This document shows, piece by piece, positions 6,012 to 21,260 of a DNA stretch of 38,666 nt. Numbering within the stretch: the first letter of the stretch is position 1; each line of letters begins with the position of its first letter. The notes beneath the pieces are model-generated. The model was not told the origin of the DNA. It did no database searches and worked only from the letters and a program-made list of their open reading frames with translations. The position numbers and the translations under genes were made by a program. Where the stretch lies: the NCBI GenBank assembly GCA_937907715.1, contig CALERM010000103.1, forward strand, positions 1 to 38,666, written 5' to 3'. Source of the DNA: an uncultured Clostridia bacterium. Its GTDB lineage: Bacteria; Bacillota; Clostridia; Oscillospirales; Oscillospiraceae.

Positions 6012-6607
6012 AAAAGGCAGATGCTATTCTTGGTTTTGGCAGTCATGATCTGCATGTTGCCGAACGAGCAGCCGAGTTATATCTTGCCGGATATGGGAAA
6101 TACATTATTTTTACTGGTGGCTTAGGGCGTATTACAAAAAATATTTGGAGGAAGCCAGAAGCGATGGAATTTGCTGAAGTGGCAGTAAAAAGAGGCGTTC
6201 CTCGGGAGAAAATCTTTACCGAATCGGCATCGACAAATACCGGAGAAAATATCCGCCATACGAAGCTTTTGCTAAAGCAAAAACAGCTGTCGTTTTCCGA
6301 CTATCTGGTTGTAGATAAGCCGTTTAAGGAACGGAGAATCTATGCAACGCTCAAGAAACAATGGAGCGACTTGGATTTTCGCGTAACCTCTCCACAGAAT
6401 ACCTATGAGGAATATTACCGGTATTATCAGCAATCGGAGCAACTGCATGTCGAGGATTTTCTCAATATTCTGGTCGGTGATTTGCAGCGTATTAACCTTT
6501 ATGGGCGGAATGGATTTCAGATTCCGCAGGAGATTCCATCTGATGTATGGGCAGCATATCGGAGACTGGTAGACGCTGGATTTGACAAGCAGCTCATACC
6601 GGAGTGA
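5948..6607 (+). CDS. YdcF/DUF218 (SanA/ElyC-like) family protein
   Basis: ADAILGFGS, IIFTGGLG, ESASTNTGENI motifs; AGGAGG RBS. Confidence 0.88.
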   Translation: MYDVHTDAKVLWEYHHLHQPLKKADAILGFGSHDLHVAERAAELYLAGYGKYIIFTGGLGRITKNIWRKPEAMEFAEVAVKRGVPREKIFTESASTNTGENIRHTKLLLKQKQLSFSDYLVVDKPFKERRIYATLKKQWSDLDFRVTSPQNTYEEYYRYYQQSEQLHVEDFLNILVGDLQRINLYGRNGFQIPQEIPSDVWAAYRRLVDAGFDKQLIPE

Positions 6608-6629
6608 AGCAATACCGAACATTCTTTTT

Positions 6630-6656
6630 AACTTCCGTTAATCGTTAACGGAAGTT
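6630..6656. repeat. solo copy of the array palindrome, followed by a T-tract (may double as terminator)
   Basis: AACTTCCGTTAA-TCG-TTAACGGAAGTT then TTGTTTTTTT. Confidence 0.9.
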
Positions 6657-6728
6657 TTGTTTTTTTCTTTCAAAAAAACTTGAAACTTTCTCTTGTATAA
6701 TAGATGGGTTATCTGAGAGAAAGGGCGT

Positions 6729-7583
6729 GTGATGATGCGGCTATTGACAGAGCAGCAGCTAAAAGCATTTGAAAAAAGCCTTGTTCTAGAGGAGAAGAGC
6801 AAGGCGACGATAGAAAAATATATGCGCGATGTCCGCGCGTTTTATGCGTTTGTGTCCGGTCAAGAGGTGGAGAAACGGCAAATACTTGCATACAAACAGC
6901 ATATACTCGCGCAACAATACGCGGCGAGAACTGTGAACTCTATGCTGTGCAGTGTGAATCGGCTGCTGCGCTTTTTGGGGTGGAATGATTGTGTGGTGAA
7001 GGGCTTGCGGATCCAGCGGCAAGTCTATCAATCGGAACAAAAGGAGCTGACCAAAACCGAGTTTCAGAGATTATTACAGGCGGCAGCGCGCAAGCCACGG
7101 CTGCAAATGCTGTTGAAAACGATGGGATGGACAGGCATTCGTGTTTCAGAACTACAGTATTTTACGGTAGAGCGTGTAAGGACGGGAAGGATTTCCATTT
7201 CCTGCAAAGGAAAAATTCGGACAATTTTGCTTCCAAAGGTGTTGCGGAGAAACCTATTAAAGTATTGCGAGAAACGCAACATTGATACAGGGATTATTTT
7301 CCGCACGCGCAGCGGAAAGCCACTGGATCGGAGCAACATTTGGGCAGCGATGAAAAAATTATGTGCGGCGGCGAACGTGTCGAAAGAAAAAGTGTTTCCG
7401 CACAATATAAGAAAATTATTTGCCAGAACATTTTATTTTATGGCGAAGGATATTGCGCGTCTAGCTGACATATTGGGACATAATAGCATCGAAACAACAC
7501 GAATTTATATCATGACGACAGAAAAAGAAAATCAAAAGTTTTTAGACGAGATGGATCGCCTGCTTTTTCCATCGGGCGGATAG
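6729..7583 (+). CDS. tyrosine-type site-specific recombinase (Xer/integrase family)
   Basis: TGIRVSEL (R), CKGK (K), FPHNIRKLFA (HxxR), LGH, TTRIY (Y); N-terminal SAM-like domain. Confidence 0.95.
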   Translation: MMMRLLTEQQLKAFEKSLVLEEKSKATIEKYMRDVRAFYAFVSGQEVEKRQILAYKQHILAQQYAARTVNSMLCSVNRLLRFLGWNDCVVKGLRIQRQVYQSEQKELTKTEFQRLLQAAARKPRLQMLLKTMGWTGIRVSELQYFTVERVRTGRISISCKGKIRTILLPKVLRRNLLKYCEKRNIDTGIIFRTRSGKPLDRSNIWAAMKKLCAAANVSKEKVFPHNIRKLFARTFYFMAKDIARLADILGHNSIETTRIYIMTTEKENQKFLDEMDRLLFPSGG

Positions 7584-7633
7584 ACAGAAAATCAGAGGGC
7601 GTGCTGGGAAAAACAAAGCAGGACAAATATAGA

Positions 7634-7661
7634 TAACTGCATAATTTGGATTATGTGGTTA
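7634..7661 (+). other. left dif-like recombination site
   Basis: TAACTGCATAA-TTTGGA-TTATGTGGTTA, 11-6-11 architecture like dif (CATAA-N6-TTATG). Confidence 0.85.
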
Positions 7662-7743
7662 ATGATCTGACATAAGAGAAATTTGACACACAGCGTATCT
7701 GTTAAAGATATATTACAAATATTTAAATAGCTCCAATACGACC

Positions 7744-7772
7744 ATGATAGCACAGCATATTATGTAAAGCAA
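7744..7772 (-). promoter_or_regulatory. sigma-A promoter inside the invertible segment, currently pointing left
   Basis: TTGCTT-17 bp-TATCAT with extended -10 TG on - strand. Confidence 0.7.
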
Positions 7773-7919
7773 GGAGCTTTTTTCGTATTTTTGGATGCAT
7801 TTTGGGTGATTTACTCAAAGTTTGTTTTTGCTAATACAGTGACAGGATAAGGGGATTGCTATCTATCAATTTTTTCAAAAAATGCATATGTATTTCTATT
7901 TTATCTGGCTGTTAAAAAA

Positions 7920-7947
7920 GTACCACATAATCCAAATTATGTGATAC
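7920..7947 (-). other. right dif-like recombination site (inverted)
   Basis: GTACCACATAA-TCCAAA-TTATGTGATAC; spacer TCCAAA is the reverse complement of the left spacer TTTGGA. Confidence 0.85.
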
Positions 7948-8085
7948 ACGCAGCGCGTCACACCCGGACTTCATTTGAGAAACCCGCACACCAAAAATTT
8001 TCCCTCCATTTTTTCTCAAAAAATGTTGGCGTGTTGAAATCTGGTATGCTGTACTTGCAAGCCACAAAAGAAAGGACGATGACTC

Positions 8086-8460
8086 ATGATTGGACGACCC
8101 AGAGCAATAGGAAATACGAGATACGCTGTTTTGCAGCGCGAAGATCTGCTTTTGATCTATCAGTCGGGATATGATTGGCTGGAGGATAAGCGACTGAGCA
8201 AGTTTCCAGCTGATGCGCTGGTTTATGCGACGTGGGAGCAGGTGCAGCAAGCGGTTATCGCGCGATTTCACGAGCAAAAGCTGTATTGGAGTGTCATGCT
8301 GGACGAGCTGACGCCTGTTTATGGCGTGGCGGTGGACAAGCAAACATTGCTTGCTTATGGCTTTGAAGACATCCCTGACAATTGGTGCGGATGCCTGTTT
8401 CACGAGGGAGACCGGCTGCGCCGCGCGAAAATGTGGGAGCTGGGAATAGACTATTGTTAA
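8086..8460 (+). CDS. hypothetical protein, 124 aa
   Basis: AAAGGA RBS, protein-like composition; no motif recognised. Confidence 0.65.
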   Translation: MIGRPRAIGNTRYAVLQREDLLLIYQSGYDWLEDKRLSKFPADALVYATWEQVQQAVIARFHEQKLYWSVMLDELTPVYGVAVDKQTLLAYGFEDIPDNWCGCLFHEGDRLRRAKMWELGIDYC

Positions 8461-8502
8461 ATTCCACCAGAAAAAAAACAACAACTTTGTGCAAACTGCA
8501 CA

Positions 8503-8530
8503 TAAACCTTTTAGGCTTTTTTTACGTCTA
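8503..8530 (+). promoter_or_regulatory. ECF-type sigma promoter
   Basis: TAAACC-16 bp T-rich spacer-CGTCTA, matching the AAC/CGT ECF pattern; upstream of an operon encoding an ECF sigma. Confidence 0.65.
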
Positions 8531-8620
8531 GTATATAGAAGCAAACGATGGAAGATTTCTGCGACCTGTCGAGTAGAAATTTCACCATACATATTATTTT
8601 TATTGAAGGAGGCTTTCATT

Positions 8621-8674
8621 ATGAAGCTGAAAAAGACGATGCTTACGCTCGCAATGGCAGCAGTTGTTACATAA
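8621..8674 (+). pseudogene. truncated secreted-protein gene (signal-peptide stub, 17 aa)
   Basis: GAAGGAGG RBS then MKLKKTMLTLAMAAVVT*. Confidence 0.55.
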
Positions 8675-8766
8675 CGATTTCATTCGTTAACAGAAACAAG
8701 GACATACGCATCCTGCCGCGACGGAGCGATCTGTCGCGGTGGGAACACAAAAAAGGAGGAAAAACG

Positions 8767-9549
8767 ATGAGAACAGGACATAAATTCTGCATGTATTGCG
8801 GGCAGGCCATCAGTGAGGACGCGAAATTTTGCCCGCTGTGCGGAAAGAGCCAGAAGATAGACCGACCGGAAGAGACAGAAAAACAGGTGCCCTCTGCTGT
8901 ACAGGAAAAGGCGCAGACCATGACGCATACGATCAAGAACACCCTGTCGGATGTTTCGCAAAAAGTACAGGAGGCGGATTTGGCAGACAAGGCGAAATCC
9001 GCTGCGCATACTGCGAAAGCGACATGGGATCGTGCAGGGGAAACGAGAAAGAAAAATGAGAGAAAAAAGAAAAATCATCTGTTTGAGGAGACCACATTTG
9101 AAGGCAGAGATGCGGCGCAGGAGTTTCTCGACAAGAATGCAGCAACCATGAAACGAAGCAAGTTGGGATTACAGGTTGCTATTATTGCATCCATCTTCGG
9201 CGTGTTTTGCCTGCTGTTGGCTTTTGACGTGGTCTCGATAGATTTACCGATCCCGGTAGAAAATGCGATGCTGCTCATTTGTTTGGGTGGCTCTCTCGTT
9301 TCGTATATCATGGCAGGCGGTATTTTGAAATCCATTCGCTATTCGTTTCGCATTGCCGTCGTTGGATGGTTTATCGTTCCGGTTTTTCCGTTTGATTTGT
9401 GCATCGGGTTAATTGCTTTGATACTCTCGATTTTTGCGTTTATTTTTGTTCCGATTGTCAGCGTTGGCATCAATTATGTACAGACCAAAAAAGATATTGA
9501 GGATGCGGAGCTGTTTATCCGCATTTTGCAGCAGTCGGGGAGCTTGTAA
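8767..9549 (+). CDS. zinc-ribbon domain membrane protein
   Basis: FCMYCG...AKFCPLCG zinc ribbon and several C-terminal hydrophobic helices; AGGAGG RBS favours ATG 8767 over 8548. Confidence 0.85.
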   Translation: MRTGHKFCMYCGQAISEDAKFCPLCGKSQKIDRPEETEKQVPSAVQEKAQTMTHTIKNTLSDVSQKVQEADLADKAKSAAHTAKATWDRAGETRKKNERKKKNHLFEETTFEGRDAAQEFLDKNAATMKRSKLGLQVAIIASIFGVFCLLLAFDVVSIDLPIPVENAMLLICLGGSLVSYIMAGGILKSIRYSFRIAVVGWFIVPVFPFDLCIGLIALILSIFAFIFVPIVSVGINYVQTKKDIEDAELFIRILQQSGSL

Positions 9550-11562
9550 ATGGGAAGAGAAAACTTTCAGACGGAATGGGTGCAAAGAGCCAGAGAACAG
9601 GATCAAGAGGCGTTGGAAGCGCTATATGTGTTCTGTTATGGCGAGGTATACGCGACAATCCGAGAAGCAACCGGCGCGGATAGGGATACCATCAAGGACA
9701 TTTTGCAGGAAACCTATATCAGAGCCTTTACCAAGCTGGATACGCTGATAGATGACAGCAAGTTTCCAGAATGGATCCATTCCATTGCACACAATGCTGC
9801 GAAAGACTTTGTGCGAAAATACAAACCGCATCTGTTTGATTCGATTGATGCGGTGGATGAAGACGGCGTGCCGGAGTTACAGCTGGAAAATCAGGATATA
9901 GCGACCATGCCGCAGATCCAAATGGATCAGCAGGAGACCACGCGCCTGGTGCGGGAAATTCTGGATAGCCTGTCCGCCGGGCAGCGACTGGCGATTACGA
10001 TGTACTATTATGAACACATGACCATCGAGGAAATTGCGCGCCATTGCGGCGTGCGCGAAGGCACCATTAAGGCGCAGTTACATTTCGGCAGAGAGAAAAT
10101 GAAAGAAAAAGTGCTGGAACTGGAGAAACAAGGCACCAAGCTGTACGGTCTGCTTCCGTTCCCATTCTTTATCTTGTTGCTGCGCAATCTGGACAACGCG
10201 CAGATCCCTGTGGATTACACGCTGTGGAACCGGATTTTACAGCAATGCGGCATACAGGCAGCACCGGTACAGACGGCAGACACCCCGTCTTCCGATGCCA
10301 CGCCCAGCGCGCAGGAGGCTGGGTCTGCCGCGACGACTTCGGCGGCAAAAACAGCCGGCGCGACGGCAGGCAGTGCGGTCAAAGGAAAAATCGCCGCCGG
10401 ACTTGTCGCTGCTTTGATACTGGGCGGCGGCGGAACCGTCGCGGGCATTCAGTACATGAACCATCAGGCGCAAACGGGCATTGTACAGGAGCAGGAACAG
10501 ACCGCCTCGAATCCGGACGCGCCGGAACAGAAGGAATCTCCGACGGTCCCGACGCCGACAAGCAGTACCGATTCGCCGGAGGTCGAGCAATATCGAACGC
10601 TGCTGAACACCTTGCAGGAGGACGGCACGTTTCTGCAATATGCACACCTGAAGGATCTCAACGGAGACGGAACGCAGGAGCTGATTCTCTTACACGACAA
10701 CACCGACTTGACGATCTATCAGCTGAAACAGAATCAGCCGAAAGCGGTGTATGAGAAACGCGCGGTCAACGGATTTATGTGCTATGAAGAAGCGGTGACC
10801 GATGAGACCTATGAGCAGGCATACGAGGAGATGGGAAAAGAGGCTGCCGGAGTAAAAATTGACTGCAACCCGGCGGAGCATAAACTTTCCGTCACGCCGC
10901 TCGATGACAATTGGCTGGATGAGACGCATTCGTTTATCGTTGACTGCGATACATGGGACGAAGTGAGCGAGGAAGATTACGAAGATGGAAGCACCAGCGG
11001 CTATCAAAACATCGGTCTCGCAGGAACGTCTCAGGTACAAGGATTCTCGGATCAGCTCAGCTACCTGCTGGGAAAATCCGACACCATGGCGGCGTATGAG
11101 CGGTTCCTGCAAAGCGAAGATCGCTTTTTGGGCGCAGAGGCTTGTTATGAGTACATCTATTTGGATGACGACGATGTACCGGAGCTGGTTATTTCGGAAA
11201 ATTCCTCGTTTGGCGGACAAGTGACGCTCTATCGCTGCAAAGAAGGACTCGTCATACCGGTAAAGGATCAGCTCGGCTCCAATGGAGACATCTATTACAA
11301 GGAGCGGGGAAATCAGCTGCTCAGTAAAGTCAATAAAGATGCGGGAAAGGCTGTTCTGTATCAGCTGCAAGAGGATGCACTCGTTGCACAGCACACGTCG
11401 TCATTTTCCATGGACGCGGAGGGCAATCTGCTGTATGAGATTGACGGAAAGAGCGTGACGACGGAGCAGGGCGAAACATTCTGGGATATGGACGGCACAG
11501 CGTATTTGGCCGCCGGTCAGGACGGCAAAAATGCGGTGCATTTCCATGACAATGACTATTAA
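9550..11562 (+). CDS. ECF sigma-70 factor fused to a transmembrane helix and a large acidic extracellular domain
   Basis: Region 2 (DILQETYIRAFTKL...FPEWIHSIAHNAAKD), region 4 (MTIEEIARHCGVREGTIKAQL), TM IAAGLVAALILGGGGTVAGI, then DLNGDGTQEL / LDDDDVPEL motifs. Confidence 0.88.
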   Translation: MGRENFQTEWVQRAREQDQEALEALYVFCYGEVYATIREATGADRDTIKDILQETYIRAFTKLDTLIDDSKFPEWIHSIAHNAAKDFVRKYKPHLFDSIDAVDEDGVPELQLENQDIATMPQIQMDQQETTRLVREILDSLSAGQRLAITMYYYEHMTIEEIARHCGVREGTIKAQLHFGREKMKEKVLELEKQGTKLYGLLPFPFFILLLRNLDNAQIPVDYTLWNRILQQCGIQAAPVQTADTPSSDATPSAQEAGSAATTSAAKTAGATAGSAVKGKIAAGLVAALILGGGGTVAGIQYMNHQAQTGIVQEQEQTASNPDAPEQKESPTVPTPTSSTDSPEVEQYRTLLNTLQEDGTFLQYAHLKDLNGDGTQELILLHDNTDLTIYQLKQNQPKAVYEKRAVNGFMCYEEAVTDETYEQAYEEMGKEAAGVKIDCNPAEHKLSVTPLDDNWLDETHSFIVDCDTWDEVSEEDYEDGSTSGYQNIGLAGTSQVQGFSDQLSYLLGKSDTMAAYERFLQSEDRFLGAEACYEYIYLDDDDVPELVISENSSFGGQVTLYRCKEGLVIPVKDQLGSNGDIYYKERGNQLLSKVNKDAGKAVLYQLQEDALVAQHTSSFSMDAEGNLLYEIDGKSVTTEQGETFWDMDGTAYLAAGQDGKNAVHFHDNDY

Positions 11563-11585
11563 ATGAAAGATATAAGGAGCAAAAA

Positions 11586-12731
11586 ATGAAACATTGGAAA
11601 TTTGGACTGGGAGCAGGATTGCTCGTTACGGCGGCCATCGGCTTGAGCGGATGCGGGAGAACAACCATTGATTTACAGGATTATCTCACCTATGAATTTA
11701 CCGGTGTGAACGGGTACGGTGAGATTGACTACCGCATCCAGAGTGATTCTATGGTGGACAACAACCTCGGCGCGTTTGGCATCTCTGGCAACAGCGATGC
11801 GGAGATCTCGAGCAGCATTGACACCTATATGGATGTCGCAAACCTGCATGGATCCTGGGACAAAAAAGAAAATCTTTCTAACGGAGACAATGTCGTTTTT
11901 ACTTGGGATGAGGACACGGTACATACGATTGAAGAAAAGTACCACGTCAAGTTGAAAGACGATGCCATCAAAGCAACCGTCGATGGCTTGCAGGATGTGG
12001 AAACATATGACGCCTTTCAGGGCTTAAAGGTGAGCTTTGACGGGTATGCGCCGTCCGGTACAGTCAGTTTAGATAACTCGGATTGCGTCCTCTCCTCGCT
12101 GGAATACACGGCGAAACCGAGTGAACATCTGAAAAATGGCGACAAAGTAACCGTCACTGTCACGGTGCCGGAGGACTGCGCGAAACAGTATGGCAAGGTT
12201 CCGAAGGAAGTGTCCAAACAGTATACGGTTTCCGGTCTGGATGGCTTTGTCACCTCGGCGGCAGATATTCCGGACGACATCATGAATGACATGAAAAAGC
12301 AGGCTGAGGACACCTTCAAGGCAGAGTTTGCGAAATCCGCCGGTGAAGATGAGAAACTGGACAGCATGACCTATGTCGGCAATTACTTTTTGACGGAAAA
12401 AGAGGACGCGGTCAAGAGTTTCTGGTCTTTCAATGCTGGCAATGCCATCTATTTGGTGTATAAAACCGATTATGTTGACAATGGAAAATCCGTCAGCGGA
12501 TATTGGTATTGCCGCTTTAGCGATGTGAAGATTTTGGCAGATGGGACATACAGTGTAGATACTTCGTCGTATCGAACAACAAACACTTGGGATAGCACGA
12601 TTGGCGAAGAGCATGAGTACCCGGGCTATCCGGATGTTACTTCTCTCTTTAATCACTGTGTGACGGAAAATATTGAATCGTACAATTACGAAGACAATGT
12701 CGGAAAGGGAGATGGCAGCGCGCAGTCGTAA
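11586..12731 (+). CDS. hypothetical lipoprotein with two repeated beta-rich domains
   Basis: Signal peptide with lipobox LSGC; repeats FTGVNGYG...NLSNGDNV...TVDGL and FDGYAPSG...HLKNGDKV...TVSGL. Confidence 0.8.
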   Translation: MKHWKFGLGAGLLVTAAIGLSGCGRTTIDLQDYLTYEFTGVNGYGEIDYRIQSDSMVDNNLGAFGISGNSDAEISSSIDTYMDVANLHGSWDKKENLSNGDNVVFTWDEDTVHTIEEKYHVKLKDDAIKATVDGLQDVETYDAFQGLKVSFDGYAPSGTVSLDNSDCVLSSLEYTAKPSEHLKNGDKVTVTVTVPEDCAKQYGKVPKEVSKQYTVSGLDGFVTSAADIPDDIMNDMKKQAEDTFKAEFAKSAGEDEKLDSMTYVGNYFLTEKEDAVKSFWSFNAGNAIYLVYKTDYVDNGKSVSGYWYCRFSDVKILADGTYSVDTSSYRTTNTWDSTIGEEHEYPGYPDVTSLFNHCVTENIESYNYEDNVGKGDGSAQS

Positions 12732-12752
12732 AGCCTGCCGCGAGAATCCATC

Positions 12753-12806
12753 AAAAAAACAAATCCTCTGGCCGAGCCCTAATGGGACGGTCAGAGGATT
12801 TTTGTT
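12753..12806. terminator. bidirectional intrinsic terminator
   Basis: AAATCCTCTGGCCG / CGGTCAGAGGATTT stem flanked by A- and T-runs between convergent genes. Confidence 0.75.
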
Positions 12807-12819
12807 AGAATATTCTTTC

Positions 12820-14265
12820 TTACACCGAGTGACTTTGTACTTGCCGTTCCTTTTCCCGCTGTTCGCGTTGCTTGCGGGCGGCCTCCTGCCGCAGTTGGAA
12901 GTAAGCGGGATGCTCCATCGCCATGACTTTTTCCAGACTCAGCGGCTGAAACAGCGGCATACGCAGCTTGAATTTTGACCACAGTGCCGCATAAATTGCC
13001 AGAATCACAAAAATAACGGCGTCAATGGTCAAAATCGCGGCGCGCTGTGCGGGATCGGTAGAGATGTTGACCACCATGTACACCATACCGGCGATGCCGA
13101 TGAGCGGAATGACCGGCCCAAATGGCAGCTTAAACGTGCGCGGCGCCTTGGGCAGACGGCGGCGCAGCACCAGCAGATTGATGTGTGAGATGATATACGA
13201 GACCATCCAGAACACCGATGCCACCAGAATCATAAACGAGAGCGAGGATGCGCTTGCCAGTCCGGTCGCTTCGATGAGCAAAATCACCGTGCCGTAAATC
13301 AAAATGCCGATGTACGGCGCACCACGGCGATTGGTTTTTTGAAACAGAGAGGGAAGCATATTCATCTTTGCCATGCCATAGCAGATCTTTGTGATGCTGT
13401 TGATGACGGAATTCTGCGTGCTGATTGCGGCGAGCACCGTGACAAGACCGATCCATGCCTTGCCGACATTGCCGAGCAGACTGATGCCGTATAGAATATG
13501 CGGCGTGTCCGATGCGGCGAGCGCCGACCAGCCGGTGTAATGGTACAGACCCAACACCATGACGATCTGAATCACACAGATGATGCCGAGGCTGAGGAAC
13601 ATGCCGAGCGGGATGTTGCGGCGCGGATTGTCCACATATTTGGCAATCGGGATGATAAACTCGACGCCGATGAACAGCCAGAAGGCTGCAGCTGCCATGT
13701 TGACGCCGTCCATCACGTTGTCGGTCAGCGCAAACGACTGAGAGACTTCCGCGCCGGTACCGGCACCCACCGCACCGATGACACCGAGCAGCAGCAGCGA
13801 GCCGATGAGCAGAAACGCGACAACGTTCTGGATTTTGGCGAACATATCGACGCCAAATAAATTGATGACAATTAAAATCGCGGTCAGAGCCACGCTGATG
13901 ACCGATGCCGGAATGCCCACGCCGGTCAGCTCCTTGATGGCGAGGCCAAACATCGCACCTTCGGACGGAGCCATGAGGGCATTACAGACAATGTATCCGC
14001 CGACCATGGATACCAGCGTGACAAAGGGGCCGAGACCCGCGAGGGTATACTGCGCCAGACCGCCGGTCAAATTCGGCATGAGCGCATTCAGCTCCGCGAG
14101 CGAGGCGGCAGTAATCATATTCAGCGCGCACGCCAGCACAATCGAGACGATAAACATGCCGCCGATGGACGCAGCGCCCTGACATAGCGACATCAGGCAG
14201 GTTGTCGCAACGATCAGGCCGACACCGGTGGAGACGACGCTGAACAGGCCTAATTTTTTCTCCAT
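12820..14265 (-). CDS. APC family amino acid/amine permease
   Basis: ~12 hydrophobic segments, LAELNALMP...GG, FWLFIGVEF, NPRRNIP, PRTFKLP. Confidence 0.9.
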   Translation of the reverse strand: MEKKLGLFSVVSTGVGLIVATTCLMSLCQGAASIGGMFIVSIVLACALNMITAASLAELNALMPNLTGGLAQYTLAGLGPFVTLVSMVGGYIVCNALMAPSEGAMFGLAIKELTGVGIPASVISVALTAILIVINLFGVDMFAKIQNVVAFLLIGSLLLLGVIGAVGAGTGAEVSQSFALTDNVMDGVNMAAAAFWLFIGVEFIIPIAKYVDNPRRNIPLGMFLSLGIICVIQIVMVLGLYHYTGWSALAASDTPHILYGISLLGNVGKAWIGLVTVLAAISTQNSVINSITKICYGMAKMNMLPSLFQKTNRRGAPYIGILIYGTVILLIEATGLASASSLSFMILVASVFWMVSYIISHINLLVLRRRLPKAPRTFKLPFGPVIPLIGIAGMVYMVVNISTDPAQRAAILTIDAVIFVILAIYAALWSKFKLRMPLFQPLSLEKVMAMEHPAYFQLRQEAARKQREQREKERQVQSHSV

Positions 14266-14288
14266 AATGTATTCGTTCCTTCCAAGAA

Positions 14289-14636
14289 TCAGGTGAGGGC
14301 GTCCGCACCGTCTTCGCCAGTGCGGACACGGATGACATCAGTGACATCAGAGACAAAAATCTTTCCGTCTCCGATATGACCGGTGTACAGACATTTCTTG
14401 ACGACGTCCTCAATTTTGGGAACCTTTTCTGCTGGGACATACAAAATAATCATCTGCTTGGGCAGCAGCTCCATGATTTTATTCTCTTTGGTGGCAAACT
14501 CCATGGCACCCTTCTGCACGCCGCAGCCCAGCGCCTGCAGCACGGTCATGCCGGTGACGCCGACCTTGCTCAGCTCGATGCGCAAATCCTCCAATTTAGA
14601 CATGGATGTCACGATTTCTACGCGGGAAATAGTCAT
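14289..14636 (-). CDS. P-II family nitrogen regulatory protein
   Basis: GVTGMTV, GCGVQKG, LLPK, TGHIGDGKIFVSDV, IRVRTGE; AGGAG RBS favours ATG 14636. Confidence 0.92.
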   Translation of the reverse strand: MTISRVEIVTSMSKLEDLRIELSKVGVTGMTVLQALGCGVQKGAMEFATKENKIMELLPKQMIILYVPAEKVPKIEDVVKKCLYTGHIGDGKIFVSDVTDVIRVRTGEDGADALT

Positions 14637-14654
14637 AGTCAATGCTCCTTTCGG

Positions 14655-15797
14655 TCAGGCGAGTGCCGGATGATCCCACAGGTTCAGCTTGGTGCCGATG
14701 CCCTTTTTGAGCGCGTTGCGGTAGACAACCGTGCCCCATGCGACATCCTCGGTCGGCATACCGCCGACGGAATAAATGATAATTTCATCCTTCTTGCGGT
14801 GTGTCGGAATATTGCCGACGAGCACATCGCCCAGATCGTCGATGTCACCGCGCGTCAGCTTGCCGTCGTGAATGAGATCCATGGCGTGAACGGCCGGAAT
14901 CGGAATGGTTTCATACGCCGGATACGGCATTTCTTCCGCCCATGCCTCGTACAGCTTGATGTTGTCCGTGACGATGCGGGCGCGGTTGATGAGAAAATCA
15001 TCATCAAAGCGCGCGGCGGCAGGGCAGGCGATGATTGCGCCCGGCTTGATCCATTCCTCTGCAATGTACGGATAGGTAGAAATATCACCAGTCGGGGAAG
15101 AGGTTGCGATTTCTACAATATCCGCATCGCGCACGGCTTCCTCCTCGGTTTCCACAATCGAGATATTGGTCACCTGCGGAAAGCGTTCGCGGACAAAATC
15201 CGCAAATTTCTGTGCCGATGGGGATTTTAGGGAAGAGCCCTTGATTTTCAGCGTGTCAATGCCCGGACGGACAGCCATTGCGGCGGCAAAGGCGGTCTTG
15301 CTCATAACGCCCGGGCCGATGATACCGACAACCTTGGCGTCCTCGCGGGCAAAGTGCTTGAAGCCGACGCCCGGCACCGCGCCGGTGCGATACGCGCTCA
15401 AAATATTGGCGGACATATAGGCAACCGGTGCGCCGGTGTCCTTGTCATTGAGCGTCAGCATCAGGATGGAACGAGGCAGACCCTTTTTGCGGTTTCCGAC
15501 GTTGGAGCCGTACCACTTGACGCCTGCCATATCAAACTTACCGCCAAGGTACGCAGGCATCGCCATAAAGCGGCGGTCGGGGCCATCGGTCGGCATGTTC
15601 GGGAACGGAGAGTGCTCCGGGAAGCTGACCATACAGCCGTGGGAGTTGCCGTTGGCACCGCCCATGCGGTAGTCACCGACCTTCATCAGACGGAACATTT
15701 CTTCAATCGCATCGACACAGCCCTTCATGTCGCGCACGCCTGCCTGAATCATATCCGGTTCGCTCAAATACAGAAAATCTACTTTTGGTTCGTTCAT
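14655..15797 (-). CDS. ornithine cyclodeaminase/mu-crystallin family protein (tyramine oxidase subunit B-like)
   Basis: DFLYLSEPDM, DYRMGGANGNSHG, RRFMAMPAYLGG, GVKWYGSN, LSAYRTGA, IIGPGVM, SVGGMPTEDVAW; start at MNEPK with AAGGA RBS. Confidence 0.88.
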   Translation of the reverse strand: MNEPKVDFLYLSEPDMIQAGVRDMKGCVDAIEEMFRLMKVGDYRMGGANGNSHGCMVSFPEHSPFPNMPTDGPDRRFMAMPAYLGGKFDMAGVKWYGSNVGNRKKGLPRSILMLTLNDKDTGAPVAYMSANILSAYRTGAVPGVGFKHFAREDAKVVGIIGPGVMSKTAFAAAMAVRPGIDTLKIKGSSLKSPSAQKFADFVRERFPQVTNISIVETEEEAVRDADIVEIATSSPTGDISTYPYIAEEWIKPGAIIACPAAARFDDDFLINRARIVTDNIKLYEAWAEEMPYPAYETIPIPAVHAMDLIHDGKLTRGDIDDLGDVLVGNIPTHRKKDEIIIYSVGGMPTEDVAWGTVVYRNALKKGIGTKLNLWDHPALA

Positions 15798-15817
15798 GGT
15801 AAATCCATCCTTTCCAG

Positions 15818-15869
15818 AAAAAAAGAAAAAGGCGCTGCGTACCCGTCCGGTACACAACACCCTTGTTGT
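15818..15869 (-). promoter_or_regulatory. leader attenuator: terminator overlapped by an ANTAR-like hexaloop hairpin
   Basis: Terminator GGTGTTGTGTACC/GGTACGCAGCGCC + T-run; competing hairpin ACAAC-AAGGGT-GTTGT. Confidence 0.65.
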
Positions 15870-15896
15870 TCGTGCTTTGTTTTCTAAGTTGCCTCT

Positions 15897-15925
15897 ATTG
15901 TAGCAGAGATGCCTGCGTTTGTCAT
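15897..15925 (-). promoter_or_regulatory. sigma-A promoter for the OCD-PII-permease operon
   Basis: ATGACA-17 bp-TACAAT with extended TG. Confidence 0.65.
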
Positions 15926-15948
15926 TTTGCATGTTGTAAAAAATGAAA

Positions 15949-15971
15949 TGTCTATTTTTCGTCAATTTTGT
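15949..15971 (-). promoter_or_regulatory. putative operator, copy 1
   Basis: ACAAAATTGACGAAAAATAGACA on - strand; 22/23 identical to 17568-17590. Confidence 0.7.
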
Positions 15972-16020
15972 GCGCAGACGCAAAGCGTAATCCAATTGTA
16001 TGACAAGAATTGGCATATTA

Positions 16021-16049
16021 TTGACAAATAGGGGCGGCGGATTTATACT
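16021..16049 (+). promoter_or_regulatory. sigma-A promoter for the regulator gene
   Basis: TTGACA-17 bp-TATACT. Confidence 0.75.
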
Positions 16050-16084
16050 GGGAACAGAATATGACACAGAAAGAAGGGAAAAAT

Positions 16085-17554
16085 ATGACAGGAGAACGGC
16101 TCAGCTGGCTGATTCGGACGCTGGGCACATCCGGCAAGGAGCTGTCCGAGCGCATTGGGATTGACACCTCGACGATGAGCAAATGGAGAAAGGGCAAGCG
16201 TATCTTACGATATGATTCGGTGTACGCGCAGCGCATGGCCGCCTGGGCGATGGACAGCGACGTGGAGCGCAAGACCGGCGTGCTGACGCACATGCTGCGC
16301 GAATGGCAGCCGTCGCTGCCGCTGGACAGCCGCGAACAGCGCATAGATGCGCTGCGGCTGTGGCTGACGCTGACCGAGCAGCCGGACGTACAGGCGATAC
16401 CGGAGCGGCACGGCGTCCCCGCGCCGACGGAGCTTCTGATCGGCGTAGAGAAGATGATGGAGGCGCAGAACACAATGTTTCGCCTGCTGCGCGATCTGCC
16501 GGGACCGCAGGAAATGATTATGCTGGATTTCGGCGCGATTGATTGGAGCACATGCCCGCGCCATCTGGTAGAGACGTGCGTGCGGGAAAACCGCAGCGCG
16601 CTGGAGAATCCGCAGCACGCGATGGTCATTCTCGACCAGCTCACGGACACCTATCGCCCGCGGGAACTGATGTTTCAGTGGATGCCGATTTATTTGCAGC
16701 CCCATGTGCGGACGTATTTTTACCGCAATCCCAAGCCGCTGCCGCTGCGGCAGAACATTCTGCTCATTCGCGGCAGGGCGGCTCTGCTCATGTCCAGCAC
16801 ATCGACCCACCCGGACCAGATAGTATCGACATTTTCCTATGACCCGGAATATGTTCGGCTATATGAGGACATGGCGGACGCGCTGGTAGCGGACAGCCGC
16901 CCGATGATTGAGGTCATGGAGACGCGGCAGCTGATTCCGTTTTTGCAGCAGATTGGCCAGCGGATGCGCAGCTCGCACCTATTATATATGATTAACCAGC
17001 TGCCGACGTTTCGCAACATGCCGCCGGAGCTGCTGGATGAAATTCTGCGCGACAATCAGGTGAGCGGGGAGCAGTATGCCGAGTGCATGGCGGCAGGACA
17101 GCAGAGCACCGCGACGCGCACCCGCTGCGAGAGCCGCCAGCTGTACAATCTGGACGCGATTGAGGACGCACTGGAGCAGGAATATATCGTTGACGATGAT
17201 CTGTCCGCCGTTGTCGGACGGGAAATCCGCGTGACGCGCGAACAGCTCAAGCAGCAGCTGCGCTTTTTGCGCGAGCATCTGCGCGCGCCGCATTATTCGC
17301 TGACGATCTATCCGTTTTCGCGGCTGGAGGTGCACACCTCGCCGCCGTGCAATATGCTCGTGCAGGATGACAGCATGGCGGCGGCGTGGGATGCGGGGCA
17401 GTACATGCGCCGCATGTATTCGGAGGAGATGTCCGTCATCAGCGGATTTTACCAGTACGCGGACTCTCTGTGGGAGCAAATCTCCCCGGCGTGCCATGCG
17501 GAGGCGTGGTGTCGGCGCAGAATAGACGCATTATTGACAATCGAGCCGAAATGA
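16085..17554 (+). CDS. XRE-type HTH transcriptional regulator with a large uncharacterised C-terminal region
   Basis: LSWLIRTLGTSGKELSERIGIDTSTMSKWRKGKR HTH; sits between two catabolic operons; alternative start 16061. Confidence 0.8.
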   Translation: MTGERLSWLIRTLGTSGKELSERIGIDTSTMSKWRKGKRILRYDSVYAQRMAAWAMDSDVERKTGVLTHMLREWQPSLPLDSREQRIDALRLWLTLTEQPDVQAIPERHGVPAPTELLIGVEKMMEAQNTMFRLLRDLPGPQEMIMLDFGAIDWSTCPRHLVETCVRENRSALENPQHAMVILDQLTDTYRPRELMFQWMPIYLQPHVRTYFYRNPKPLPLRQNILLIRGRAALLMSSTSTHPDQIVSTFSYDPEYVRLYEDMADALVADSRPMIEVMETRQLIPFLQQIGQRMRSSHLLYMINQLPTFRNMPPELLDEILRDNQVSGEQYAECMAAGQQSTATRTRCESRQLYNLDAIEDALEQEYIVDDDLSAVVGREIRVTREQLKQQLRFLREHLRAPHYSLTIYPFSRLEVHTSPPCNMLVQDDSMAAAWDAGQYMRRMYSEEMSVISGFYQYADSLWEQISPACHAEAWCRRRIDALLTIEPK

Positions 17555-17567
17555 TTGACGCACATGG

Positions 17568-17590
17568 ACAAAATGGACGAAAAATAGACA
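17568..17590 (+). promoter_or_regulatory. putative operator, copy 2
   Basis: ACAAAATGGACGAAAAATAGACA. Confidence 0.7.
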
Positions 17591-17613
17591 AGAGCTTTTG
17601 TCCATGCCGCGCA

Positions 17614-17642
17614 TTGACGGAAAAAGGACAATGTCGTAAGAT
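17614..17642 (+). promoter_or_regulatory. sigma-A promoter for the dehydrogenase operon
   Basis: TTGACG-17 bp-TAAGAT. Confidence 0.6.
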
Positions 17643-17651
17643 AGACGTGTC

Positions 17652-17709
17652 AAGACAAAGAGGTCTTACCGAGAGAAAATCTCCTCGGTAAGCCTCTTTT
17701 TTTGTTTTC
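17652..17709 (+). promoter_or_regulatory. leader attenuator: terminator overlapped by an ANTAR-like hexaloop hairpin
   Basis: Terminator AGAGG.CTTACCGAG/CTCGGTAAGCCTCT + T-run; competing hairpin AAGAC-AAAGAG-GTCTT. Confidence 0.65.
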
Positions 17710-17741
17710 TAAGAAATATTACGGTTTAGGAGTGAACGATC

Positions 17742-18056
17742 ATGCGTATCCAAGAACACCCGATTTTGGGCACCTATGACAAAGGTCCTCTGGTAGAATT
17801 TACATTGGATGGCAAGACAATGACAGGATATGAGGGCGAGCCGATTGCCGCCGCGCTGCGCGCACAGGGCATTTTGCAGCACCGCCACACGAGAAAGACC
17901 GGCGAGGCGCGCGGCGTGTTTTGCGCCATCGGACGCTGTACCGACTGCGTCATGGTAGTCGATGGCGTGCCGAACATCCGCACGTGCATCACGCCACTCA
18001 GAGCGGGCATGAAGGTGCAGACACAGTATGGCGTGGGGCCAAAGGAGGATGCGTAA
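17742..18056 (+). CDS. (2Fe-2S)-binding subunit (HcnA/sarcosine oxidase alpha N-terminal-like)
   Basis: GEPIAAAL, RGVFCAIGRCTDCVMVVDG, IRTC. Confidence 0.9.
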   Translation: MRIQEHPILGTYDKGPLVEFTLDGKTMTGYEGEPIAAALRAQGILQHRHTRKTGEARGVFCAIGRCTDCVMVVDGVPNIRTCITPLRAGMKVQTQYGVGPKEDA

Positions 18057-19646
18057 ATGAAACGGTATGAATTGATTGTCATTGGCGCGGGCCCAGCGGG
18101 TCTTTCCGCCGCGATTGAAGGCGCAAAAGCGGGTATGCATGTCATTGTCTTTGACGAGAACGCGCGTCCGGGCGGACAGCTGTTCAAACAGATTCACAAG
18201 TTCTTTGGCTCGAAGGAGCACAAGGCAAAGATCCGCGGCTTCCGCATCGGTCAGATGCTGCTGAAGGAGGCGGAAGAGGTCGGCGTCACCGTATGTCTTA
18301 ACGCAACCGTGCTCGGTATTTTCCCGGAAAAGCGCGTGACCGTGCGTTATGCCGATCACATTGAGCAGTATTCCGGCGACAATATCATTGTGGCGACCGG
18401 TGCGGCAGAAAATATGATTTTGTTTGACGGCTGGACCAAGCCGGGCGTCATCGGCGCCGGTGCGGCGCAGACCATGATGAACCTGCACGGCGTGCAGCCG
18501 GGTCAGAAAATTCTCATGGTCGGCTCCGGCAACGTCGGACTGGTGGTCTCCTATCAGCTGCTGCAGGCAGGCTGCGAGGTTGTGGCGCTGATTGACGCCG
18601 CGCCGCGTGTTGGCGGCTACGGCGTGCACGCCGCAAAGGTAGCCCGCTATGGCGTTCCGTTTTATCTGCGGCACACGATTGTTCGCGCTGAGGGCAAAGA
18701 TCAGGTAGAGGGCGCCGTCATTGCAGAGGTGGACAGCAAGTTCCAGCCGATTCCGGGCACCGAAAAGCATTTGGATATTGACACGATCTGTCTGGCAGTC
18801 GGTCTGTCTCCGATGAGTCAGGTGCTCCGCATGTCGGGCTGTGAGATTGAGGACACGCCGGGCGGTTTGGTTCCAAAGACCAGCGAATACGGCGAGACGA
18901 CGATTCCGGGACTGTTCGCCGCCGGTGACGTGGCGGGCATTGAGGAGGCATCGTCCGCGATGATCGGCGGACGCATTGCCGGTCTGGCGGCGGCGCACCG
19001 CGCCGGATACCTGCCGGAGGACAGCTTCAAGCAGCAGGCACAGGCGGCGCGCGATTCGCTGTCCCAGCTGCGGCAGGGCATGTTCGCCAAGGAAAACCGC
19101 GGCAGAACCGATTTGACCGAGACCGAAGAGGGCTATGCGCTGTCCAAGAATCTGCTGGCAAAGGGCTATGTAGAGGAAGAGGAGCTGAAGGCGTTTCCGG
19201 CGGCGAACGCTTCGGTGCACGGCGTGCATCCGGTCATCGAGTGCACCCAGAACATCCCGTGCAACCCGTGTCAGGACGCCTGCAAGTTTGGCTGTATTCT
19301 GGTCGGCAGGCAGATTACCAATATTCCGGTGGTAGACCGCGACAGAAAATGTACGGGCTGCGGCATGTGTGTCGCCAGCTGCTCGGGTCAGGCGATTTTC
19401 CTCGTCAACGATGATTTTGAGGAGGGGCGGTCAACCGTAACGCTCGCCTATGAATTTTTGCCGTATCCGGAAAAAGGACAGACCGGCACGGCGATGGATC
19501 GTTCCGGCAAGCCGGTGTGCGAGGCGGAAGTCATTTCTCTGCGCAAGAGTCCGGCGACCGACGGCACGGCGCTGCTGACGATTGCCGTACCGAAGGAATT
19601 TTCGATGAAGGCGCGCGCCTTTCGACCGAATGGAGGGGACAAGTAA
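18057..19646 (+). CDS. FAD/NAD(P)-dependent oxidoreductase fused to a 4Fe-4S ferredoxin domain (HcnB/OoxA/proline dehydrogenase alpha-like)
   Basis: IGAGPAGL, PGGQL, ATGA, GSGNVG, FAAGD; C-terminal CTQNIPCNPCQDAC and CTGCGMCVASC. Confidence 0.9.
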   Translation: MKRYELIVIGAGPAGLSAAIEGAKAGMHVIVFDENARPGGQLFKQIHKFFGSKEHKAKIRGFRIGQMLLKEAEEVGVTVCLNATVLGIFPEKRVTVRYADHIEQYSGDNIIVATGAAENMILFDGWTKPGVIGAGAAQTMMNLHGVQPGQKILMVGSGNVGLVVSYQLLQAGCEVVALIDAAPRVGGYGVHAAKVARYGVPFYLRHTIVRAEGKDQVEGAVIAEVDSKFQPIPGTEKHLDIDTICLAVGLSPMSQVLRMSGCEIEDTPGGLVPKTSEYGETTIPGLFAAGDVAGIEEASSAMIGGRIAGLAAAHRAGYLPEDSFKQQAQAARDSLSQLRQGMFAKENRGRTDLTETEEGYALSKNLLAKGYVEEEELKAFPAANASVHGVHPVIECTQNIPCNPCQDACKFGCILVGRQITNIPVVDRDRKCTGCGMCVASCSGQAIFLVNDDFEEGRSTVTLAYEFLPYPEKGQTGTAMDRSGKPVCEAEVISLRKSPATDGTALLTIAVPKEFSMKARAFRPNGGDK

Positions 19647-19967
19647 ATGGATAAGCTGATGAATCGTTCCGAAGACATCGGTCCCTTTGTACCGATGCCG
19701 GATGATGATATGATTGTATGCCGCTGTGAGGAGATCACAAAGGGTGAAATTCGACGGGCGGTACACGATGGATTCCGTTCGCTGACAGAGATCAAGCGCG
19801 TGCTGCGCAACGGCATGGGCTTGTGTCAGGGACAGACGTGTTCCCGTCTGGTGCGTTCGATTGTCGCCAGAGAATTGGGTGTCCGTCCGTCGGATCTGCC
19901 GATGACGACATCGCGCGCACCGGCGCGGCCGGTGGAAATGAGCGTTTATGCAAAGGAGGTCAAGTGA
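19647..19967 (+). CDS. BFD-like (2Fe-2S)-binding subunit
   Basis: IVCRCEEIT...GMGLCQGQTC...RAPARP. Confidence 0.9.
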   Translation: MDKLMNRSEDIGPFVPMPDDDMIVCRCEEITKGEIRRAVHDGFRSLTEIKRVLRNGMGLCQGQTCSRLVRSIVARELGVRPSDLPMTTSRAPARPVEMSVYAKEVK

Positions 19968-19968
19968 T

Positions 19969-21117
19969 ATGGCGGTAACAGATAAAGCACAGGTGGTCAT
20001 TGTCGGCAGCGGCATTATCGGCAACGCGACCGCGTATTATTTGGCAAAGCGCGGCGCCTCCGTCATCGTGCTGGAGGGCAGTGAGATCATCGGAAACGGC
20101 GGTTCCTCCCGCAACGGCGGCGGCGTGCGTCAGTCGGCACGCGACCCGCGCGAGCTTCCGCTGGCGATGTATGCGGTAGAGCACATGTGGCCGACGCTCT
20201 CGGAAGAGCTGGATATGGATGTCGAGTACGCCAAGAAGGGAAATCTCCGATTGGGGAAGAGCGAAGCGCACCAGAAGATTTTGCAGGGTCTGTGCGATCG
20301 CTGTACGGCGCTGGGGCTGGATGTCCGGATGCTGTCCGGCGATGACGTGCGCCAGATTAACCCGTATCTGTCGGAAGAGGTGACGTGCGCCTCGTGGTGT
20401 CCGACAGACGGACATGCCAATCCGCTCAAGGCAACGCTGGCCTATTACCGCGCGGCACTGCGGCTGGGCGTGCACTTTTACACAAAGGAACAGGCGGTGG
20501 AGCTGGTGATGGAGCGCGGCAGGCTGCGCTATGTCAAGACCGCCTGCGGCGATGTCTTTGAGGGCGAGACCATTCTCGTGGCAGCGGGCTACAGCAGCCG
20601 CGCGCTGCTGCACACGGTCGGTGTCGATATTCCGATGAACAAGGCTCTGCTCGAATGCATCGTGACGGAGGCAGAGCCGCCGATGTTCGAGCAGATGCTC
20701 GGCGCGGCAATGGCGGACTTTTACGGCCATCAGACGCCGCACGGTTCGTTCGTCTTTGGCGGACACACTGGCATGGAGCCGTATTTCGGCGCCTATGCCT
20801 CGGAGAAGCAAAGCCCGTCACAGGCGATTTCCGCCCCGACAGCCGCCCGTGCGATTCTGGAGTTCTTCCCGCGCCTGAAGCACACCAAGCTGGTGCGAAC
20901 CTGGGGAGGCATGATGGACGAATGTGCGGACAAGGTTCCGGTCATTGATACCTGCGAGGAGGTAGAGGGACTGGCGATTGCCTGCGGCTTTACCGGTCAC
21001 GGCTTCGGCATCGGCCCGATTACCGGTCTGCTGCTGTCCGAGCTGCTGCTGGACGGCAAGACGTCAACCCTGCCGATTGATGCGTTCCGCTACGACCGAT
21101 TCGGCGCGCACAAGTGA
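19969..21117 (+). CDS. DAO-family FAD-dependent oxidoreductase (sarcosine oxidase beta/HcnC/OoxB/TynA-like)
   Basis: VVIVGSGIIG, GGSSRNGG, DGHANP, GFTGHGFGIGP; AGGAGG RBS favours ATG 19969. Confidence 0.9.
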   Translation: MAVTDKAQVVIVGSGIIGNATAYYLAKRGASVIVLEGSEIIGNGGSSRNGGGVRQSARDPRELPLAMYAVEHMWPTLSEELDMDVEYAKKGNLRLGKSEAHQKILQGLCDRCTALGLDVRMLSGDDVRQINPYLSEEVTCASWCPTDGHANPLKATLAYYRAALRLGVHFYTKEQAVELVMERGRLRYVKTACGDVFEGETILVAAGYSSRALLHTVGVDIPMNKALLECIVTEAEPPMFEQMLGAAMADFYGHQTPHGSFVFGGHTGMEPYFGAYASEKQSPSQAISAPTAARAILEFFPRLKHTKLVRTWGGMMDECADKVPVIDTCEEVEGLAIACGFTGHGFGIGPITGLLLSELLLDGKTSTLPIDAFRYDRFGAHK

Positions 21118-21136
21118 GAAAAATAGGTGAACAGAC

Positions 21137-21172
21137 ACAGCACCCCATCGAACCCGGATGGGGTGCTGTTAT
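21137..21172 (+). terminator. intrinsic terminator
   Basis: ACAGCACCCCATC / GATGGGGTGCTGT stem. Confidence 0.7.
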
Positions 21173-21260
21173 AATACCCCAAAATCCATTGCTTCTCGCT
21201 CCCAAACATGGTACGATAAACAAAAGAGAGAGCGAAAAAACCGCAAAGGAGGAGACCTGT

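Follow-up and report, generated by a model that had tools for sequence, protein, structure and literature searches.

DNA inversion as a means of phase variation has been examined in depth in Bacteroides, Escherichia coli and Clostridioides difficile. In the fimS switch of E. coli, FimB and FimE are encoded beside an invertible promoter segment of about 300 bp, whose promoter in the OFF state points at the recombinase gene; the repeats of fimS are 9 bp long, and fimS depends on IHF and Lrp. Here we analyse a locus of comparable layout in an uncultured Clostridia bacterium of the Oscillospiraceae (assembly GCA_937907715.1), found in a stretch of 38,666 nt (contig CALERM010000103.1, positions 1 to 38,666 of the forward strand; hereafter the window), where the gene for an Xer-like tyrosine recombinase is followed by a short segment between two inverted, dif-like sites. 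We read this locus, with a probability of about 0.8, as a recombinase-linked invertible promoter (inverton) that was assembled in the OFF orientation for the genes downstream. Among described systems fim is the closest in layout, with an adjacent recombinase, a promoter segment of about 300 bp, an OFF state directed towards the recombinase and a surface structure as its target; it differs in having two recombinases rather than one and in their protein family, whereas the sites of the present locus are dif-like, with 11-nt arms.

In C. difficile, a tyrosine recombinase inverts a 195-bp segment upstream of the gene for the cell-wall-anchored protein CwpV, with ~5% of cells ON, and this segment contains no internal promoter and acts through a terminator (PMC2784873); RecV is a master recombinase that acts in trans on several distant switches (PMC5903667). 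Shared with cwpV are a Clostridia tyrosine recombinase and a short segment before a surface-protein gene, with most cells OFF, and the arrangement in a sister strain of the window (L027, below) is similar. At the present locus, in contrast, the recombinase gene is adjacent, a conserved predicted promoter lies inside the segment, and a terminator made of a site plus a T run is not conserved. Classical dif is a 28-bp site with 11-nt inverted arms around a 6-nt centre and CATAA/TTATG inner arms (PMC2731167). The site plan is the same here, and the nearest models and solved structure of the recombinase are Xer proteins, but its scores fall below the Xer cut-offs, the sites are paired, inverted and next to the gene, the spacer varies by locus and the genome has a separate XerD. 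In Mycoplasma agalactiae an adjacent Xer-like recombinase, Xer1, is essential for the inversions that switch the vpma surface-protein genes (PMC2268961); as described, that system shuffles several genes in turn, unlike a small promoter cassette.

Clostridia invertons with tyrosine recombinases are already in print (PMC11892184; Microbiome 2025), so that the kind is known and the present locus is a further member of it. In that survey, where Clostridia invertons were placed within 5 kb of a tyrosine-type recombinase/integrase, inverton group 139 (33 invertons, 32 of them from Clostridia) was the one most significantly linked to a tyrosine recombinase group, 'invertase group 35'; its examples, from Clostridium sp. 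D5 and Intestinimonas butyriciproducens, have short repeats around ~206–228 nt, and read counts show flipping in culture. These lengths match the 204–318 nt of the family described below. The two may be the same group; the main-text passages compared do not describe a dif-like 11-6-11 site, private spacers or a promoter. A literature search, with subscription journals outside its coverage, returned no account of promoter inversion at paired dif-like sites whose spacers are private to each locus.

Results

A tyrosine recombinase beside two inverted dif-like sites

The recombinase (Table 1) matched Pfam Phage_integrase (3.5e-22) and the N-terminal SAM-like domain Phage_int_SAM_1 (1.7e-7), and its gene stops 50 nt before the left site. 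Its best NCBIfam matches were XerA, XerD and XerC, all far under their cut-offs: for the four Xer equivalog models scored (XerC, XerD, XerA and XerS), the values from highest to lowest were 139.6 (cut-off 220), 110.1 (329.6), 95.4 (335.15) and 50.1 (267). The NCBIfam 'tyrosine-type DNA invertase' model gave 20.4 bits (E 3.3e-4). The closest solved structure was an XerA-like chain, 4a8e_A (1.2e-18), to which the catalytic Arg, Lys, His-x-x-Arg, His and Tyr could all be aligned. These matches and the complete set of catalytic residues bear out the first-pass annotation of this DNA, made from the letters alone, which had placed a tyrosine recombinase beside the site pair. The ratio of nonsynonymous to synonymous polymorphism (pN/pS) against the 94%-identical strain L027 is 0.18, indicating that the gene is under purifying selection. 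The genome also encodes a separate XerD, which with a score of 343.2 passes the cut-off of 329.6, as well as an XerC-like protein.

A repeat search of the window found a perfect 20-nt inverted repeat (7640–7659 and 7922–7941, with 262 nt between the arms). It falls within two 11-6-11 sites whose spacers are exact reverse complements, as the first-pass annotation had reported, whose arms match each other at 9 of 11 and 10 of 11 positions within the single sites, and whose centres lie 286 bp from each other. No perfect inverted repeat longer than 14 nt arose when 6400–9000 was shuffled 300 times with its dinucleotides preserved and a gap of 100–700 allowed, which excludes a chance origin of the repeat. 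The 16-nt core occurs at these two places only, both in the window and, with up to two mismatches allowed, in the whole assembly (1.81 Mb in 252 contigs, 81% complete). A transposable element would be expected in several copies independent of their neighbours; instead there is one pair in the genome, and in the family the pair always lies 3' of a recombinase gene.

Exact scans of metagenome and genome contig collections with the 20-mer yielded three relatives: the sister strain L027, a fragment of the same lineage (L021), and L025, one other metagenome-assembled genome with the full module, which shares the 16-nt core. Both 28-bp sites are unchanged in L027, where the interior of the segment is 93.7% identical. 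The 20-mer was also met singly and without a recombinase in three unrelated loci (L020/L022/L028, L023/L026 and L024), which we take to be chance matches or simple hairpins.

Table 1. Coordinates, in the window, of the switch locus and the genes that follow it.
Feature	Position	Strand	Composition or direction	Evidence
Xer-like tyrosine recombinase, 284 aa, presumed invertase	6729–7583	+		Pfam, NCBIfam, structure alignment
Left 11-6-11 site	7634–7661		arms TAACTGCATAA and TTATGTGGTTA around spacer TTTGGA (7645–7650)	
Interior of the invertible segment	7662–7919		between both sites	homologous segments elsewhere in both orientations
Predicted extended −10 promoter	7744–7772	−	TTGCTT-N17-TGc-TATCAT; would fire towards the recombinase 3' end	
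Right 11-6-11 site	7920–7947		arms GTACCACATAA and TTATGTGATAC around spacer TCCAAA (7931–7936)	
orf124, first downstream gene, conserved small protein	8086–8460	+		homologues, pN/pS
Surface-protein gene remnant	8621–8690	+	first 17 codons (signal-peptide start), stop, last ~20 nt	
Zinc-ribbon protein, 670-aa extracytoplasmic function (ECF) sigma fusion, 381-aa open reading frame (ORF)	8767–12731	+		Pfam, NCBIfam

A recurrent module with locus-specific spacers

Counting the window's own genome, homologues of the recombinase are present in 10 of 44 genomes of the genus (E ≤ 1e-20) and in 127 of 401 sampled genomes of the order (E ≤ 1e-45), spread over 77 of 178 genera. Relatives at E ≤ 1e-30 make up at least 7999 clusters of a large protein collection, and those with a name are called only 'tyrosine-type recombinase/integrase'. 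We examined 43 loci: that of the window, 11 from the genus, 29 from the order, L025 and L027. Well-formed CATAA-N6-TTATG site pairs were found in 28 of them, with the first site beginning 0–100 nt after the recombinase stop codon and a between-site segment of 204–318 nt. Six others have imperfect or different arms at the same place (L006, L008, L010, L015, L016 and L032), in five the contig stops less than 150 nt past the gene (L009, L011, L030, L047 and L051), and four showed no convincing site pair (L013, L040, L048 and L052). Two of the imperfect loci, L010 and L016, and also L014 carry the same repeat, two in one genome; these are strain variants and lie in one orientation only.

The spacers covary across these loci. 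When all well-formed sites 150–600 nt apart were paired, complementarity not being demanded, the spacers were exactly reverse-complementary in 37 of 37 pairs from the 28 loci; when L027, nearly a duplicate of the window, is not counted, 21 different spacers occur in 27 loci that have their arms in common. Arm conservation is partly forced by the search pattern (positions 7–11 and 18–22) and the flanking positions are free; at the unforced positions the inner arm (TTATGT-tGTA) is more conserved than the outer one. Shared arms around covarying spacers are to be expected of crossover sites on which a tyrosine recombinase acts and selection is at work. In L033, L039 and L055 the site pattern also caught a palindrome-like stretch inside the 3' coding end of the recombinase gene (GCA[A/G]AA-TGGA[A/G]A-ATATGC, at −36 from the stop), which is probably mere coding conservation.

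Some loci have more than two sites and some genomes more than one locus. Three or four sites are present in L029, L043, L045, L053, L055, L056 and L057, the extra ones as two in tandem 31–103 nt apart on one side, or on both sides in L029; L045 (two left, one right) and L057 (one left, two right) are related by an inversion between outer sites that carries the middle site with it. Such loci may be switches with more than two states. A genome of the same family as that of the window (G133) has 15 recombinase copies (among loci L062–L087), several with identical sites and the spacer TTGATA and four of these (L078, L082, L084 and L087) also with the same offsets, which suggests a repeated or mobile unit. 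In G086 three loci combine the same arms with three different spacers, and in G030 three contigs stop 58–84 nt past the gene, at the first site.

The segment lies in both orientations among related loci

With every segment oriented by its own recombinase gene, a comparison among them revealed homologous segments lying in opposite directions: L031 against L037 (90.8% identity over 207 nt), L036 against L037 (87.7%), L031 against L041 (82.7%) and L045 against L057 (75%). A comparison of the whole loci L031 and L037 showed the recombinase side to be colinear (86% over 1072 nt), the part between the sites inverted (88% over 274 nt, 2365–2637 against 2640–2368) and the downstream side colinear again (75% over 396 nt), and hence the two differ by an inversion bounded exactly by the sites. 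The first-pass annotation had proposed comparing strains for the two orientations; they are found between these orthologues of other species, and not at the window locus itself, where L027, L021 and the sequencing runs X1–X4 all lie one way (below).

The same downstream families stand behind both orientations: a small helix-turn-helix (HTH) protein follows L031 and L050, whose promoters face the recombinase, and L037, whose promoter faces away, and a family of ~373-aa uncharacterised proteins follows L042 and L044 (towards) and L041 (away). Within the single genome G133, paralogous loci with the same spacer and promoter lie both ways. Contigs also tend to end at the switch. An end on the switch side, that is ≤300 nt 3' of the stop codon or inside the 3' part of the gene, was seen in 16 of 70 homologous loci, compared to 2 of 70 with an end within 300 nt on the 5' side; and a hand count of the rows listed in the order-wide homologue search (E ≤ 1e-45) gave 17 minus-strand genes with the 3' end less than 400 nt from the contig start against 4 plus-strand genes with the 5' end there. 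Mixed orientations would cause such breaks, and repeated copies of the element could cause them too.

A predicted outward promoter inside the segment

Across the family the segment holds one strong sigma-70-type TGn extended −10 promoter, predicted a few tens of nt inside one site and directed outward through that nearer site, whichever way the segment lies. The better strand reached a promoter score of at least 12 in 75% of the 28 loci, compared to 2% of shuffled segments, and the weaker strand never scored more than 11; as the score rewards TG, the contrast with shuffled segments carries more weight than the count itself. In 20 of the 28 loci, the window and L027 among them, the promoter faces the recombinase, and in seven (L029, L037, L041, L043, L053, L054 and L057) it faces the downstream genes, with one tie (L039); L006, judged by eye, is likewise 'away'.

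In the window, the extended −10 promoter that the first-pass annotation had described as pointing back at the recombinase was found on the minus strand: a −35 element TTGCTT (7772–7767), a 17-nt spacer, TG (7752–7751) and a −10 element TATCAT (7749–7744). The segment scores 11 on this strand and 9 on the opposite one. The expected start is at ~7737, which inversion would move to ~7844 and turn rightwards, ~240 nt before orf124. In the present orientation the geometry implies that antisense RNA against the recombinase would be made, and this might feed back on the recombinase, as the first-pass annotation had suggested.

Genes downstream of the proposed switch

The regulated gene is likely orf124. 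The 12 homologues of its product span 57–93% identity, and one at 93% is named from Butyricicoccus intestinisimiae; pN/pS against L027 is 0.16, which points to purifying selection. No Pfam or NCBIfam family was matched, a protein-atlas search returned only unnamed clusters at 0.80, which is chance level, and an AlphaFold model built from 7 sequences had low confidence (mean predicted local distance difference test score 56.8) and offered nothing usable. The Eggerthellaceae label of the L027 record looks doubtful, the closest named homologue of orf124 being from Butyricicoccus; relatives of the module are labelled Lachnospiraceae, Dysosmobacter and Oliverpabstia.

The remnant that follows orf124 is explained by L027: between the equivalents of window 8663 and 8670 that strain has a further 1137 nt, whose product has a signal peptide together with Big_2 (2.6e-15) and cell-wall-binding SLH (9.2e-25) domains. 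Run contigs aligned to the window have loose ends at exactly 8663 and 8670. By this comparison the ancestral order is switch, orf124, surface protein, and the window strain has lost the surface protein. The Big_2/SLH gene of L027 (positions 956–2227 there) reads as two ORFs and may be frameshifted or mis-assembled.

Further downstream the two strains part. Window 8785–21185 (12.4 kb) holds the zinc-ribbon gene, the ECF fusion and the 381-aa ORF, along with genes for an amino-acid permease and oxidoreductases and an ornithine cyclodeaminase-like gene. Nothing in the part of the L027 contig compared corresponds to this stretch, and there the equivalent of 8784 adjoins that of 21186. Either the window strain carries an island of its own here or the sister strain has a deletion, and a link of the zinc-ribbon and ECF genes to the switch is therefore doubtful. 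The ECF-type sigma domain occupies the first ~190 aa of the product of 9550–11562 and is fused to a ~480-aa C-terminal extension without a family match. The left flank, 6602–6686, is also variable: run contigs and L027 diverge from the window before 6686, contigs that match 6400–6602/6612 continue differently from the window, and L027 has Fic-like and TPR-like ORFs upstream instead (labelled by reading the translations). With both flanks varying by strain, the conserved block is 6686–8663, that is, recombinase, switch and orf124. In the wider family the downstream genes, labelled in the same way, are varied and encode lipoproteins, zinc-ribbon, HTH, TetR, signal peptidase-like and Wzz-like proteins and an acyltransferase.

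The first-pass annotation had expected a flip to aim the promoter at orf124 and possibly at an ECF/surface-protein operon. Of this, orf124 stands as the likely target and the surface protein fits the arrangement in L027; in the window the surface-protein gene is deleted and the ECF link is uncertain.

Observations that weigh against a working switch at this locus

Several observations count against the reading of this particular copy as a functional switch. Every copy of the window lineage seen has the promoter facing the recombinase: L027 (94.1% identical over 1979 nt) lies in the window's orientation, as does the L021 fragment (1232 nt, 98.7% identical) at its right site, and neither joints nor the inverted form were found in the contigs of the four runs X1–X4 aligned to 6400–8800, among which the contig of X1 record 5 (7114–8095) covers both sites and also agrees with the window. 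The presumed main target, the Big_2/SLH gene, is deleted, so that selection on the switch may be relaxed. The −35 element matches the consensus at only 3 of 6 positions, and this is why a generic promoter scan of the window did not list the promoter at 7744–7772. The segment lacks the strong internal hairpin terminator present in several relatives, and a weak TGn-TATGCT near 8042–8050 could give basal expression of orf124 whatever the state of the switch.

The contig result is itself no evidence against flipping, as contigs drop minority forms. Six runs matched, all of them as contigs and with no RNA run among them, the best covering 0.23 of the sampled words; the X1–X4 contigs come from a ~94%-identical strain at a depth of 3–7, in which a minority form could not appear. 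The sole match that a DNA search with 7400–8500 gave in 41 related genomes was one of 114 nt, within the 3' end of the recombinase gene of G002.

Discussion

We propose that the Xer-like recombinase would bind both dif-like 11-6-11 sites and, because their spacers are identical but inverted, recombination would flip the ~280 bp that they enclose. As assembled, the predicted promoter would fire into the 3' end of the recombinase gene, leaving the downstream genes OFF; in the flipped one, transcription would run from ~7844 through the right site into orf124 and, in the ancestral arrangement, would also reach the gene for the secreted Big_2/SLH surface protein. The outcome would be phase-variable expression. 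That the locus is a recombinase-linked invertible promoter in an apparent OFF state, the core of the first-pass annotation, is strongly supported by the comparison with its family; that this copy still flips, that its promoter is active and which genes it drives are inferred.

One alternative is that the window holds a relic or locked switch, descended from a working inverton, which no longer flips or matters and whose orientation is fixed. The single orientation in the window, L027, L021 and the run contigs and the loss of the Big_2/SLH gene speak for it; we consider it unlikely, as the repeat is perfect at 20 of 20 positions and both 28-bp sites are unchanged despite 6% divergence of the interior, the recombinase is intact, with its catalytic residues complete and a low pN/pS (0.18), and orf124 is still there and constrained. 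L027, moreover, keeps its SLH gene in the same orientation, so that a majority in the OFF state would be normal, as the 20 of 28 loci also indicate. A segment that flips but exerts control as in cwpV is very unlikely: transcription would then come from outside, for example by read-through from the recombinase gene, termination would depend on orientation and the internal promoter would be irrelevant. Apart from the cwpV precedent (PMC2784873), such control is suggested by the right site, which on the minus strand (7920–7957) forms a terminator-like 12-bp hairpin followed by six T (−16.3 kcal/mol, z −2.3); after inversion these would lie 3' of the left site on the plus strand, shortly behind the recombinase gene, where they could end its transcript. 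A T run by the promoter-distal site is, however, found in only 3 of 27 loci, two of them the window and L027, whereas the outward TGn −10 promoter keeps its place and direction with respect to the nearer site across the family; on the same count we rejected a site hairpin plus T run as a conserved terminator of the family.

Use of the dif-like sites for Xer dimer resolution, as the first-pass annotation had also entertained, or by an Xer-mobilised element, with no phase variation involved, is highly improbable. The 11-6-11 plan and the CATAA/TTATG inner arms do resemble classical dif (PMC2731167), and the best family matches of the recombinase are Xer models; yet its scores lie far below the Xer cut-offs and the genome has its own XerD and XerC-like protein. 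Dimer resolution needs one site per replicon, and inverted sites yield inversion, not resolution or excision. Here two inverted sites lie 286 bp apart, the pairs of the family have locus-specific spacers, and relatives have up to 15 such loci per genome. It is scarcely credible that the sites are palindromes arisen by chance, terminators of the ordinary kind or the ends of a miniature transposable element with terminal inverted repeats: each site is itself a hairpin and the 20-mer does occur singly in three loci without a recombinase, but shuffled sequence never held a perfect repeat beyond 14 nt, the spacers are complementary in all 37 pairs, the pair is always 3' of a recombinase gene and is single in its own genome, and orthologues are inverted exactly between the sites.

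More tentatively, at somewhat below even odds, the window may hold one member of a very large and as yet unnamed family of phase switches in gut Clostridia, each a self-contained 'plug-in' cassette of Xer-derived recombinase, dif-like site pair and outward extended −10 promoter. The cassettes would have been placed before many unrelated genes, with private spacers of 4–6 nt at each locus possibly blocking cross-recombination and multi-site loci having more than two states. Among their targets would be surface proteins, lipoproteins, small HTH and TetR regulators and a Wzz-like protein. The three loci of G086, with the same arms and three spacers, fit privacy of the spacers; the many copies with the same spacer in G133 count against it. 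The features of the family that deserve study are its Xer-like enzyme, dif-like sites, locus-specific spacers, multi-site variants and the 15 copies in a single genome.

For the window strain the meaning is modest, as with its surface-protein target lost the switch probably controls only orf124, one small protein of unknown function. For the family it is wider. Phase variation by inversion has hardly been studied in the abundant butyrate-producing gut Clostridia, and the module can be recognised from assemblies alone, where it marks which surface and regulatory genes vary and explains the frequent contig breaks in these genomes. The locus-private spacers may also constitute orthogonal recombination sites which, if confirmed, would be useful for genetic tools in Clostridia.

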